In this document: positions 6,009-33,186 of the stretch, in pieces
Layout: each line of letters opens with the position of its first letter
How positions within the stretch are numbered: position 1 is the stretch's first letter
Assembly (NCBI RefSeq): GCF_058153355.1
Contig: NZ_CM177019.1
DNA: 64,000 nucleotides
Direction: 5' to 3' (one strand)
The notes under the pieces: generated by a model
Seen by the model: the letters and a program-made list of their open reading frames with translations, nothing else
The model's database searches: none
Told to the model about the DNA's origin: nothing
Program-made: the position numbers and the translations under genes

Positions 6009-7448
6009 TTACTGCAACCAGGTCGCGGCGAATACGCTGGAAATCAGCGACATCACAATCAGTACAATCAACACCAGGCGCATTGATCCTGGCAGCGGTG
6101 CGGCATCGGCGACGGCTTCGCTCGGTTTGCCAGGCACGATGCGACCAAACCAGCGAATAAACCAGGCGAAACTGGCGACCGATTCAATCATCAGCAGAAT
6201 CATGGCGGGCAGCAGGATCCAGTACTCCTCTGACAACGAAAAACCGGCAGCAAACAGTGGGAATTTACTGAAGAAGCCGTTGAACGGCGGCACGCCAGTA
6301 ATCGCCAGCGCGGCCACGCAGAAACCCACGCCAGGCAACGGCAGGGTGTGCAATACGCCACGCAGACGCGGCAACAAGCGCGTGCCGCAGCTGTAACTCA
6401 GCGCACCTGCTACAAGGAAAAACAGGCTTTTAGCGAACGCGTGGTTGACGATGTAGGCGATGCTGCCCTCCAGTGCCAGCCGCGAGCCGAAGATGGAGAG
6501 CGACAAGCCGAAGAACATCCAGCCAAGTTGAGTGATGGTCGACCAGGCCAGCAACCGCTTCATATCCTGCTGCGGCAAATACATCAGGAGGCCGTAAAGA
6601 ATGGTGACCAGTGCCATGACCATGCCAATGCCGCCAATCACATGCGGGATATTGCCGCCGTCGATAATGGCGCGGGCAAAAATGTAAACGCCCACTTTCA
6701 CCATCGATGCGGCGTGGAGATAGGCGCTGATCGGTGTTGGCGCTTCCATTGCATCCGGTAGCCACGCTTGCATCGGTAGCTGGGCCGATTTTCCCCACGC
6801 GGCAAACAGGATGCCGCCATAAACCAGATAACGTGCGTCGCCGTGTAACTCGCTCATCGCGCTAAGCGCAAACGTTCCGGTCTGCAAAAACAGCGTGGCG
6901 GCGGCAAGATACAACCCCAGCGAACCGATATGAGTGATAAGTAACGCTTTTAGTGCTGAACGTTGCGCTTTATCGCTCTGGTAATAACTGATCAACGCCC
7001 AGGAGCAGCCGCCCGTAATTTCAAAAAACAACAACTGACCGAGCAGCGTCGAGGAGAGTACCAGTCCCGCCATCGCGCCGATAAAAACCAGCAAAAATGC
7101 GTAATAACGATTCGTGCCGTTATGCGGGTGTTCGCGATTTTTATCCGTCAGATAACCCGTGGAGTAGATCGTGACCAGCAAACCGAGGAACACCACCACA
7201 AACAGAATCAGCGTACTCACGCGATCAATGACCAGGCCAAACAACGCCACATCCCCCACGTTGACCAACGTCAACGTGACGGCAACTTTATCGGCCTGAT
7301 AAAACGCGGAGATCAGCGACAACATGCACAGCGTGGTCAGCGCGGCGAACAAAATCCCCCATTCGGCGGCCCGACGTTGTGGCGAAAACGAAACGACCAG
7401 TGCGCCGATAAAAGGCAGCAATAACGTCGTCAGAGCAAGATTTTCCAT
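6009..7448 (-). CDS. hyfD: Hydrogenase-4 membrane subunit D (NuoL/M/N-like)
   Basis: 479-aa polytopic ORF; operon position. Confidence 0.9.
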   Translation of the reverse strand: MENLALTTLLLPFIGALVVSFSPQRRAAEWGILFAALTTLCMLSLISAFYQADKVAVTLTLVNVGDVALFGLVIDRVSTLILFVVVFLGLLVTIYSTGYLTDKNREHPHNGTNRYYAFLLVFIGAMAGLVLSSTLLGQLLFFEITGGCSWALISYYQSDKAQRSALKALLITHIGSLGLYLAAATLFLQTGTFALSAMSELHGDARYLVYGGILFAAWGKSAQLPMQAWLPDAMEAPTPISAYLHAASMVKVGVYIFARAIIDGGNIPHVIGGIGMVMALVTILYGLLMYLPQQDMKRLLAWSTITQLGWMFFGLSLSIFGSRLALEGSIAYIVNHAFAKSLFFLVAGALSYSCGTRLLPRLRGVLHTLPLPGVGFCVAALAITGVPPFNGFFSKFPLFAAGFSLSEEYWILLPAMILLMIESVASFAWFIRWFGRIVPGKPSEAVADAAPLPGSMRLVLIVLIVMSLISSVFAATWLQ

Positions 7449-8422: not shown

Positions 8423-10441
8423 TTAGACGGCAATAGCGATTAGCAGCACAACCAGTGCGGCGACCACATACAGGCAATAGAGACGAAAGTCGCCGCTTTG
8501 CAGATGCTGTATTTCTTTGGCCAGCCGTTGGGTGGCGCTCACGATGGGGCGGAGCACCCGCTCATCCCAAAAGGGTTCTGTGCTCTGAGCCCTGGCGGTG
8601 ATGTGCGCGAGACCTTTGTTCAGCCTCAGCGTAGGGTCGAGCTGTTGTCGTAGACGAAATAGCGCAGAAAAGACCACACGCAGCGGCTGCATCACGCCAT
8701 TGCCTGACGGGGCCATCGCATTTTCCCAGCCGTAGCCGCATGCCCAGGCATCTCCTGTGCGACGAAACGCTGCGCGGCGCGAACGACACCACAGCCAGTA
8801 AAGGCCAGGCAGCAAAGGCATCGCCAGTAGTAACAGCAACAGTAATGAGGGAGTGACCTGTGTATGAAACGTGCCGGGGACAAGTGCCATTCCGCTGGCG
8901 ACAGTGACGGCAGGGGTATTGGTAAACGCATGGGCAATGTGCATTATTTTCGGTGCCAGCCAACTGGCACTAAGCGCAATTAATACGCAGAAAGCCGCGA
9001 GCAGTAACATGGCGACGATCATCGTATTTGGCACGTCCTGTGCCTCTTCAGCGTGTGTACTGCGCGGCGCACCACAGAAAGTAATGCCGTACATTTTGAC
9101 GAAGCACATTACTGCCAGCCCACCAGTGACTGCCAGCATCACCATAGCAATAGGACCCGCAAGTTGTAGCGCTACGGCTTCCACACGACTTAGTGAGAAC
9201 AGTGACTGCCAGGTGTACCATTCGCTGATAAAACCATTCAGCGGAGGAATGGCTGATATCGCGAGGCAACCAATCAGGCATGCTGCGGCTGTCCACGGCA
9301 TCCGTTTTGCCAGTGCCCCCATTTTTTCCATGTCGTGGGTATGCAAACGCGAAATAATCGCACCCGCGCCGAGAAATAGCAGCCCTTTGAACAGCGCATG
9401 GTTGAGCAGATGAAACAGTGCGCCGAGCAGTCCAACCACGGTGAGCAGCGGGTCGTGCAGTGACAGACCGACCATGGACACACCGACCGCCAGCAAAATA
9501 ATGCCGACGTTTTCGACGGTACTCCAGGCCAGCAGCCGTTTGATATCCTGTTCCGCCAGCGCATACAGCACGCCCAGGAGCGCGGAGATTGCGCCGATCG
9601 CCATCACCAGAATGCCCCACCACAGCGGCAAACCCGTTTGCGCCAGCAGATCCATCGCCACTTTCAGGATGCCGAAAATACCGATTTTGACCATTACGCC
9701 AGACATCAACGCCGAAGCGTGCGATGGTGCGGCAGGGTGAGCGCGCGGCAACCAGCTGTGCAACGGCATCATCCCGGCTTTCGCGCCAAAACCGAAGAAG
9801 GCCAGCAGGAACACCGCCGACGCCAGCCCCGGAGAAAGTGAAAGCGTGCGGAAACTGGCAAAATCGAGGTTGCCGCTTTCGCGCCACATCAGCAAGAAGG
9901 CAATCATAATCAGCACCGATCCGGCGTGGGCGATAAAAAAGTAGAGCATGCCAGCGTTGATTGACGTTTTATCCTGCCTGGCAATGACCAGAAACCAGGA
10001 AGACAGCGACATCATTTCAAACAGCACGATGAACCAAAAAGCGTTGTCCATCACCAGCAGGGCAACCATCGAGGCGATGAAAAGATTCATAAAGAAGCCC
10101 ATCGCCGCCGCGCCTTTGCCCTCGTATTCGCGCATATAAGTCAATGAATAGAGCGAACAAACCACCACCAGCAAGGAGATAACCAGCACCATAAATGCCG
10201 AGAGGCTATCCATTCGCAGGGTTAAATCGGCAAAGTCAAAAGGCGTGGCAAAACGGGCGACTAAAGTTACGCCTGCATGTAATTGCGTAATTCCGCTGAT
10301 GATGCCAATCGCGCCGCCCACCAGCGATGTGATGCCGGAAAGCTTAATAGCCAGTCTGTCCAGACCGAGTAAAAACAGCGAAGCCAGACTGGCAAACAGA
10401 TAGAGGATCAGCGACCAGGTTAATAATTGCAGGGCATCCAT
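8423..10441 (-). CDS. hyfB: Hydrogenase-4 membrane subunit B (NuoL-like)
   Basis: 672-aa polytopic ORF; operon position. Confidence 0.9.
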   Translation of the reverse strand: MDALQLLTWSLILYLFASLASLFLLGLDRLAIKLSGITSLVGGAIGIISGITQLHAGVTLVARFATPFDFADLTLRMDSLSAFMVLVISLLVVVCSLYSLTYMREYEGKGAAAMGFFMNLFIASMVALLVMDNAFWFIVLFEMMSLSSWFLVIARQDKTSINAGMLYFFIAHAGSVLIMIAFLLMWRESGNLDFASFRTLSLSPGLASAVFLLAFFGFGAKAGMMPLHSWLPRAHPAAPSHASALMSGVMVKIGIFGILKVAMDLLAQTGLPLWWGILVMAIGAISALLGVLYALAEQDIKRLLAWSTVENVGIILLAVGVSMVGLSLHDPLLTVVGLLGALFHLLNHALFKGLLFLGAGAIISRLHTHDMEKMGALAKRMPWTAAACLIGCLAISAIPPLNGFISEWYTWQSLFSLSRVEAVALQLAGPIAMVMLAVTGGLAVMCFVKMYGITFCGAPRSTHAEEAQDVPNTMIVAMLLLAAFCVLIALSASWLAPKIMHIAHAFTNTPAVTVASGMALVPGTFHTQVTPSLLLLLLLAMPLLPGLYWLWCRSRRAAFRRTGDAWACGYGWENAMAPSGNGVMQPLRVVFSALFRLRQQLDPTLRLNKGLAHITARAQSTEPFWDERVLRPIVSATQRLAKEIQHLQSGDFRLYCLYVVAALVVLLIAIAV

Positions 10442-11058
10442 TAGCGTTGCTCCTGAGTGAGGGAAAGGGGATCCTCCCCGCCATTGGCAAACCAGCTTGC
10501 GGCAAGGCGCTGTTTTTCTTTCATCTGACGTTGCAGGCTATCGTCGGTGATCAGCCGTAACGCATGATTCGGGCAAGCGCGAACGCAGGCCGGACCTTCT
10601 GGCAAGAAATCACACAGGTCGCATTTCACCGCGACGGTCTGGACACCCGGTTCCCAGCGCAGCAAAGCATGTTGGGTCGGCGCGTTTTCTTCGCCGTCTT
10701 TGAGTGAGCCGTCAGCCTGAAAAACATATTGCGCAGGGGCATTCACCGGACGGCTTCCTGAAGCGCTGATTGCGCCAAATGGGCAGACCACGGCGCAAAG
10801 CTTGCAGCCAATACAGAGGCTTTCGTTGAGTTGGATCGCATCATCTCTCTGGGAGATGGCATTGACCGGGCAGACCTGCAGGCAAGGGGCTTCCTCACAG
10901 TGATGACACACGACAGGGGCAGTGAGTGTTGACGTCTTCGCCAGGGCCAGGCGCGGGTGTTGCTGTAAACCTTGCGTTTTATGCACGTCCGAACAGGCAG
11001 CGAGACAGGTATTACATCCTGTACACCACAGTGGTTCGGCCACCACAAAGCGGTTCAT
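10441..11058 (-). CDS. hyfA: Hydrogenase-4 4Fe-4S ferredoxin subunit A
   Basis: ORF with multiple CxxCxxC clusters; start placed at MNRFVVAEPLWCTGCNTC (205 aa). Confidence 0.85.
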   Translation of the reverse strand: MNRFVVAEPLWCTGCNTCLAACSDVHKTQGLQQHPRLALAKTSTLTAPVVCHHCEEAPCLQVCPVNAISQRDDAIQLNESLCIGCKLCAVVCPFGAISASGSRPVNAPAQYVFQADGSLKDGEENAPTQHALLRWEPGVQTVAVKCDLCDFLPEGPACVRACPNHALRLITDDSLQRQMKEKQRLAASWFANGGEDPLSLTQEQR

Positions 11059-11099
11059 GTCGGCTCCTTGAAAATGATATGAAACATTGCATTTCATAT

Positions 11100-11117
11100 T
11101 GCATAAAGGATGCCAGT
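11100..11117 (-). promoter_or_regulatory. Candidate sigma54 (-24/-12) promoter of the hyf operon
   Basis: Minus strand reads ACTGGCATCCTTTATGCA: GG and GC elements 10 nt apart, about 40 bp upstream of hyfA start; hyf is known to be sigma54/HyfR dependent. Confidence 0.55.
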
Positions 11118-11310
11118 CTGATTAATTTAATATATTCAATAAGTTATGTGTTAACTGGATTCTGAGCGGTACAAAAATGATGGTCATTAACGTTCAGCAA
11201 TAAATGGATTCGACACCCGTGTCGCAGGGGAAAGCGAGAATGTGATCTTGATCACGAGAAGTGAGATGTGCTGACCGCAAGCGCAGCCAGCACGGAATGG
11301 AGTAAAGTAA

Positions 11311-11781
11311 TCAGGCGTGTTCTTTCAGCCAGTTCAGCACAACGTCGTGGTGATTGCTGGTTTTGAAATCGTCAAAGACATGTTCGATTTTGCCATCAGC
11401 GTCAATCAGGAAGCTGATGCGATGAATACCATCGTAGGTTTTGCCCATGAAGGACTTTTCACCCCAGACGCCGAATTGTTCGCACACCTGGTGGTCCTCA
11501 TCAGACAGGAGCGTAAAGTTAAGCAGCTCTTTTTCCGCAAAACGGGAGAGTTTTTCGGGTTTATCGGTGCTGATACCCAGCACATCAACGCCCGCTTTTT
11601 TCAATTCATCCATGTTATCGCGTAAGCTGCAGGCCTGTACGGTACAGCCGGGAGTCATGGCTTTTGGGTAAAAATAAACCAGAACACGCTGTCCCTGGAA
11701 GTCGGTCAAATTAACTTGTTCTCCGTCTTGATCCGGCAAGCTAAATTTCGGTGCGATATCACCGGCTTTCAGTGGATTCAT
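11311..11781 (-). CDS. bcp: Thiol peroxidase / peroxiredoxin Bcp
   Basis: 156-aa ORF MNPLKAGDIAPKFSLPDQDGE... with peroxiredoxin TPGCT active-site motif. Confidence 0.92.
   Translation of the reverse strand: MNPLKAGDIAPKFSLPDQDGEQVNLTDFQGQRVLVYFYPKAMTPGCTVQACSLRDNMDELKKAGVDVLGISTDKPEKLSRFAEKELLNFTLLSDEDHQVCEQFGVWGEKSFMGKTYDGIHRISFLIDADGKIEHVFDDFKTSNHHDVVLNWLKEHA

Positions 11782-19256: not shown

Positions 19257-20560
<1,304 letters not shown>

Positions 20561-31908: not shown

Positions 31909-33186
<1,278 letters not shown>

Follow-up and report, generated by a model that had tools for sequence, protein, structure and literature searches.

The window analyzed here is a single stretch of 64,000 nucleotides (64 kb) which, judged by its sequence, belongs to an E. 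coli chromosome. A query of 601 nt taken across the region of interest was 99.8% identical to RefSeq E. coli chromosomes in which bcp and hyfA are annotated, the latter as a subunit of hydrogenase 4. We focused on the spacer between these two genes and on the sites that it contains (Table 1). Downstream of hyfA, the genes hyfB to hyfJ follow as far as about position 341, and hyfR runs past the start of the window. The start of hyfA is the ATG at 11058 (MNRFVVAEP...), and the annotated RefSeq start agrees with it. The Shine-Dalgarno sequence before this ATG is kept in an alignment with Citrobacter and Kosakonia. We rejected a longer hyfA open reading frame beginning at 11097, whose ATG falls after the -12 element but ahead of the expected transcription start and is not the annotated one.

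Table 1. Features of the bcp-hyfA region, listed along the minus strand with their positions in the window
Feature	Position	Strand	Remarks
bcp (thiol peroxidase)	11311..11781	-	Upstream gene, same strand as hyfA
bcp-hyfA spacer	11059-11310		252 bp; flanked by the stop of bcp (11311) and the start of hyfA (11058)
bcp 3' hairpin	11268..11293	-	11-bp stem, tetraloop; -20.2 kcal/mol, z = -5.3 (RNA fold)
CRP site CGTGATCAAGATCACA	11241..11256	.	Centre about -160; one mismatch to TGTGA-N6-TCACA
Palindrome GCGACACGGGTGTCGA, candidate FhlA/HyfR upstream activating sequence	11210..11225	.	TCGNCA-N4-TGNCGA type
Invariant block TGACCATCATTTTTGT	11171..11186	-	About -98..-83
IHF-like element TAACTTATTGAAT	11134..11146	-	About -58..-46; one mismatch to the reverse-orientation consensus YAANNNNTTGATW
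Sigma-54 -24/-12 promoter element TGGCATCCTTTATGCA	11115..11100	-	GG at 11114-11113, GC at 11102-11101
Expected transcription start	11088..11089	-	Predicted; 30-31 nt upstream of the hyfA ATG
hyfA Shine-Dalgarno sequence AAGGAG	11064..11069	-	5 nt before the ATG at 11058
hyfA	10441..11058	-	Opens the hyf operon; annotated in near-identical RefSeq genomes

The base composition of the spacer is uneven. The AT content is 70.5% between 11116 and 11210 and 46.0% between 11211 and 11310, with a window average of 46.8%. The original prediction had described the remaining ~190 bp upstream of the promoter as AT-rich; this holds for the promoter-proximal ~95 bp but not for the distal part, and the distal half of the spacer also contains the bcp 3' hairpin and the CRP site. 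Compared with K-12, the spacer is 96% identical. This is the same locus as the K-12 hyfA promoter (Skibinski et al. 2002; EcoCyc; OS23), with all motifs, the Shine-Dalgarno sequence and the start codon identical, and the two differ only by 10 single-base changes, all outside the motif cores, which amount to strain variation. The locus is not intact in every E. coli genome. The bcp part of the 601-nt query alone was matched in approximately 1,100 (about 1127) of 5424 complete genomes, which indicates that roughly one complete genome in five lacks both hyfA and the hyf promoter at this locus. Elsewhere in the window, pairs of identical 15-mers are spaced by a constant 12,652 bp (19359/32011 and 19962/32614, within 19359-19976 and 32011-32628 on the minus strand); this recurrence points to a direct duplication or a repeated element.

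The -24/-12 element upstream of hyfA

A GG-N10-GC element had been predicted about 40 bp upstream of hyfA. We found that it is real: 10 bases separate the GG from the GC, and 42 nt separate the GC from the hyfA ATG. The element lies on the minus strand, which the prediction had left unstated. It has the invariant GG and GC, 10 nt apart, in the context TGGCAC-N5-TTGCW by which we defined a sigma-54 site. A sigma-54 matrix scan, the check that the original prediction had named, gave a suggestive answer. With the RpoN count matrix from 186 promoters (Barrios et al.), as reproduced in PMC7658346, TGGCATCCTTTATGCA scored 12.2 bits and ranked 6th among the ~128,000 positions of the window, but of 3000 versions of the spacer shuffled with dinucleotides preserved, 57 reached the same score. 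The five matches that equal or exceed it all lie within coding sequence of the same window. Taken by itself, the matrix score is suggestive and gives the promoter modest, not decisive, support. Two of the other matches are TGGCATGGTCATGGCA (6612..6627, minus strand, 13.6 bits), in the sense orientation inside hyfD, and AGGCGCGGGTGTTGCT (10949..10964, plus strand, 12.95 bits), antisense inside hyfA; the high-stringency sigma-54 ChIP-seq set of Bonocora et al. contains neither of them.

The stronger support comes from published binding studies on the same sequence. The 16-mer TGGCATCCTTTATGCA is identical in K-12 MG1655, where only the base just 5' of the TGG differs (C here, A in K-12), and 3742 complete E. 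coli genomes share, without change, a 36-mer that spans the promoter and the start site. Bonocora et al. 2015 report a sigma-54 ChIP-seq site at hyfA, OS23, with the flag "C" for experimentally confirmed in EcoCyc, and their predicted start is 19 bp past the centre of the motif and 31 nt ahead of hyfA. In the study of Shimada et al. 2021, the bcp/hyfA spacer is among the strongest RpoN-holoenzyme SELEX peaks (92-100%); its peak is at 92%, and it is the top peak when NtrC is present. Together with the identity of the 16-mer, the ChIP-seq site, its EcoCyc status and the SELEX peak support the reading of TGGCATCCTTTATGCA as the known hyfA sigma-54 promoter, as had been predicted. The same prediction also named dependence on FhlA or HyfR, and this, to go by its title and by the papers that cite it, is what Skibinski et al. 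2002 deals with. Earlier work has mapped the hyf sigma-54 promoter, EcoCyc lists it, and genome-wide studies of sigma-54 and CRP binding have recovered it. It is the hyfA promoter of K-12 in a different strain and was already known.

With a start predicted at 11089, the GC falls at about -14/-13 and the GG at about -26/-25. The hyf start is reportedly "30 bases upstream" of hyfA. One strain, E. coli GF4-3, carries a 5-bp tandem duplication (AATGC) at the equivalent of ~11090-11094, just downstream of the -12 element and around the expected start.

We then looked at the same position in other species. From 45 other genomes we took hyfA-like loci, 43 of which were usable. In 33 of the 43, the 400 nt upstream contain an RpoN site that scores 10 bits or more, against a background of 0.13 such sites per 400 nt on the same strand elsewhere in those loci. 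The sites in these 33 loci mostly lie 39-84 nt from the start codon, and the loci range from Citrobacter to Providencia, Dickeya, Photobacterium and the Burkholderiaceae. The position of the -24/-12 element is kept across many genera whose flanks are otherwise unalignable. With the shuffles and these orthologous loci taken together, the match exceeds chance for its setting.

Within E. coli, the element itself varies in one group of strains. The O55:H7/O157:H7 variant of the promoter is carried by 324 genomes. In 139 of these, all complete E. coli genomes, we found TGACATCCTTTATGCA, in which the GG at -24 of the hyf promoter is changed to GA (TGACA, not TGGCA); the carriers that we sampled were O157:H7 or O157-type strains. 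One of them is O157:H7 ATCC 43890, which has the GA allele (TGACATCC...) at positions 366-381 of locus L050, equivalent to 11115..11100 of the window. The GG is kept in O55:H7 CB9615, in O157:H7 FRIK2533 and in other members of the same promoter type. Loss of a GG base should abolish sigma-54 binding and inactivate the promoter, and the TGACA allele is likely to be a natural promoter-null allele. A literature search on this O157 -24 variant returned no description of it, only an unrelated report of a hyfA frameshift.

Sites upstream of the promoter

To see which parts of the spacer are conserved, we aligned the E. coli sequence with six loci that share its bcp-hyfA synteny, four from Citrobacter and two from Kosakonia. 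The alignment showed discrete conserved blocks within an otherwise diverged spacer. The Citrobacter and Kosakonia promoters share with E. coli the order and spacing of hairpin, CRP site, palindrome, invariant block, IHF-like element, -24/-12 element and Shine-Dalgarno sequence. They differ from it in having clear T-runs after their bcp hairpins and A/T-rich centres in their palindromes, and in three of the four Citrobacter loci the IHF-like element is exact to the consensus, unlike that of E. coli.

The block farthest from hyfA is the hairpin, which is likely to serve as a terminator or stabilizer of the bcp transcript. In E. coli it is not followed by a U-tract: the tail, AUCUCACUUCUCG, has no U-run, so the structure falls short of a Rho-independent terminator, and a simple scan of 10950-11450 found no terminators. 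Citrobacter and Kosakonia have hairpins of other sequence at the same place, and T-runs follow them.

Next to the hairpin is the CRP site. One-mismatch matches to TGTGA-N6-TCACA occur six times in the window, against 2.2 expected. In Citrobacter and Kosakonia the arms of this site are conserved and its centre is variable, which is the signature of CRP. The identical 16-mer CGTGATCAAGATCACA is a high-confidence CRP site assigned to hyfA in ChIP-seq of ETEC H10407, and hyfA is a known cAMP-CRP target that was recovered by genomic SELEX.

Between the CRP site and the promoter lies the palindrome GCGACACGGGTGTCGA. The original prediction had placed activator sites somewhere in the upstream region, and this conserved TCGNCA-N4-TGNCGA palindrome supports that guess: its centre is ~104 bp upstream of the GG, at roughly -129. 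The core CGNCA-N4-TGNCG occurs four times in the 64-kb window (2.2 expected). TCGNCA-N4-TGNCGA was present in 29 of the 33 loci in the 250 nt that precede the -24 element (background, 0.034 per 250 nt). In Escherichia, Citrobacter, Kosakonia and Atlantibacter, the distance from the palindrome centre to the GG is 102-104 bp.

We built a position weight matrix from the sites at hyfA loci outside Escherichia (consensus TCGACATTAATGACGA, maximum 25.5 bits) and scored the K-12 promoters with it. The hydN promoter scored 25.0 bits (TCGACACTAGTGACGA), fdhF 12.5, hyf 6.0 and the hyc-hyp spacer 5.9, and nine positions in the window scored at least 6. The hyf palindrome has intact CGACA and TGTCG arms, a centre of CGGG that is not A/T-rich, and one outer T replaced by G. 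Its low score (6.0 of 25.5 bits) is due mainly to the G/C-rich centre, which also sets it apart from the hydN palindrome.

The comparison places hyf among the promoters of the formate regulon. The FhlA-dependent promoters hydN-hypF, fdhF, hycA and hypA are like hyf in having a -24/-12 element, an upstream enhancer of CGNCA/TGNCG half-sites about 80-105 bp from the GG and an AT-rich stretch between the two. In the hyc-hyp region the half-sites are arranged otherwise, and there is no match to the 16-bp palindrome. The hyf promoter, unlike these formate-regulon promoters, has an additional, far-upstream CRP site. From its sequence alone, the hyf palindrome is a weak copy of the enhancer type common to the formate regulon. 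On the basis of this co-occurrence, FhlA or HyfR would bind GCGACACGGGTGTCGA. HyfR is said to bind the hyf promoter region.

The search for FhlA or HyfR activating sequences, also named in the original prediction, succeeded with the palindrome motif, which hyf shares with hydN and fdhF, but not with the published consensus. That consensus, CATTTCGTACGAAATG, is from Leonhartsberger 2000 in the form quoted in PMC4987338. Its best match at hyf has 6 mismatches, and its matches at hyc-hyp, fdhF and hydN have at least 7. Since it fits known FhlA targets no better than it fits hyf, the consensus has no discriminating value here.

A second source, the FhlA matrix of a Proteus mirabilis study (PMC7658346), leads to another candidate, in which the activator site is the palindrome TGATCAAGATCACA at 11254..11241 and GCGACACGGGTGTCGA serves another purpose. 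TGATCAAGATCACA is the best match of that matrix in the spacer, at 10.3 bits. However, it coincides with the CRP site, whose 16-mer is the high-confidence ChIP-seq site described above, and the conservation there is CRP-like, with fixed TGTGA/TCACA arms and a free 6-bp centre. The matrix also finds 27 sites of at least 10 bits in the window, and we rejected it as a locator of activating sequences. The GCGACACGGGTGTCGA type, by contrast, is the one common to hydN, fdhF and 29 of 33 orthologous promoters. We therefore consider it quite improbable that TGATCAAGATCACA is the activator site, and we retain GCGACACGGGTGTCGA as the candidate.

The stretch between the palindrome and the promoter contains an IHF-like element. 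The IHF core WATCAANNNNTTR is matched at 12 of 13 positions in E. coli. Loci from Citrobacter, Morganella and Providencia match YAANNNNTTGATW exactly at an equal offset, -30/-31 when counted from the T of TGG, and the corresponding block of columns is conserved in the Citrobacter/Kosakonia alignment. IHF may bind at 11146..11134.

The invariant block and other routes to hyf expression

The remaining conserved block, read from 11186 to 11171, is TGACCATCAYTTTTGT, and it is invariant in E. coli, the four Citrobacter loci and the two Kosakonia loci. It resembles GATGACATCGTTTTT, a flank of the hydN enhancer. The block also overlaps TTAATGACCATCAT, an FNR-like match with 2 mismatches, and hyfA has been listed as a "silent" predicted FNR site. 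We kept the FNR reading of TTAATGACCATCAT only as a lead: matches with 2 mismatches are common (40 in the window against 30 expected), and neither Kosakonia nor Citrobacter sp. keeps the left arm. TGACCATCAYTTTTGT may be read as another contact for the activator, as the -35 region of a weak sigma-70 promoter or as a half site of FNR type. None of the sites assigned in the spacer explains it, and it could be a determinant for action specific to HyfR rather than FhlA, or the site of an unrecognized regulator.

The second of these readings bears on the question of which promoter is used. Shimada et al. 2014 located a SELEX peak of the RpoD holoenzyme in the spacer between bcp and hyfA, from which they proposed the hexamers ATGACC-17-CAGAAT (11187..11182 and 11164..11159), the -35 of which overlaps the invariant TGACCATCAYTTTTGT. 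It could be argued that hyf is transcribed mainly from this weak sigma-70 promoter, or by read-through from bcp, with sigma-54 in a secondary role; some read-through is plausible because the bcp hairpin of E. coli has no U-tract. However, the hexamers match the consensus at only 8 of 12 positions, which is under our scan threshold, and a simple scan of 10950-11450 found no sigma-70-type promoters of at least 9/12. The -10, unlike the block, is not conserved in Citrobacter or Kosakonia, and the literature, as far as its titles and citations go, points to dependence on sigma-54, FhlA and HyfR. We regard such a main role for sigma-70 or read-through as very improbable. The sigma-70 promoter may operate beside the sigma-54 promoter and supply a minor basal level of transcription.

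The idea that the GG-N10-GC is a chance match, with hyf expressed from elsewhere or not at all, could draw on its rank of only 6th behind five better-scoring sites inside genes, on a shuffle probability (~0.02) that is not overwhelming and on reports, among them the title of Self et al. 2004, that hyf is poorly expressed or "silent" in E. coli, but it is effectively refuted, and to us extremely improbable, given the sigma-54 ChIP-seq, EcoCyc status and RpoN-holoenzyme SELEX, all on the identical sequence, and the conserved position of the element over many genera with otherwise unalignable flanks.

A model of the hyf control region

The reading that we prefer is that the spacer is the control region of hyf, working on the minus strand, with a sigma-54 promoter, a palindrome that FhlA or HyfR would bind, an AT-rich stretch with an IHF-like element that would bend, a CRP site and the bcp hairpin. 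We give this reading a probability of about 0.93. On sequences from K-12 and ETEC that are identical to those here, previous work has demonstrated occupancy by sigma-54 and CRP, binding of the RpoN holoenzyme and the promoter entered in EcoCyc. Each of the blocks also stands out in our own data by its motif statistics and its conservation across genera.

In this model, sigma-54 RNA polymerase would sit on TGGCATCCTTTATGCA as a closed complex. It would start transcription ~30 nt before hyfA only upon the action of an enhancer-binding ATPase, either formate-activated FhlA or HyfR; both are named as hyf activators by Skibinski et al. 2002 in their title and by papers that cite that study. The activator, bound to the palindrome ~104 bp upstream, would remodel the closed complex. 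The 70%-AT stretch with its IHF-like element would bend so that the activator reaches the polymerase, a looping geometry that we infer from the layout of the sites. The CRP site would add cAMP or catabolite control, and the hairpin would end the bcp transcript.

The outcome mainly validates the spotting by eye of a genuine -24/-12 promoter. In mapping the palindrome and the invariant block by comparison, we may have gone a little past the literature that we found, and we claim no novelty for this map. Two things here are perhaps undescribed, namely TGACCATCAYTTTTGT as a HyfR determinant or the site of a new regulator and the decay of the promoter in the TGACA allele of O157; we put this reading forward tentatively and think it rather unlikely. 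What the analysis offers is a compact and testable map, from CRP site through activator palindrome, invariant block and IHF-like element to the -24/-12 element. If the TGACA allele acts as we propose, hyf would be genuinely silent in the genomes that carry it. In E. coli more generally, the weak palindrome may be one reason for the low native expression of hyf, and the map of the control region could help explain it, for example through the weak, G/C-centred activator site of hyf compared with that of hydN.
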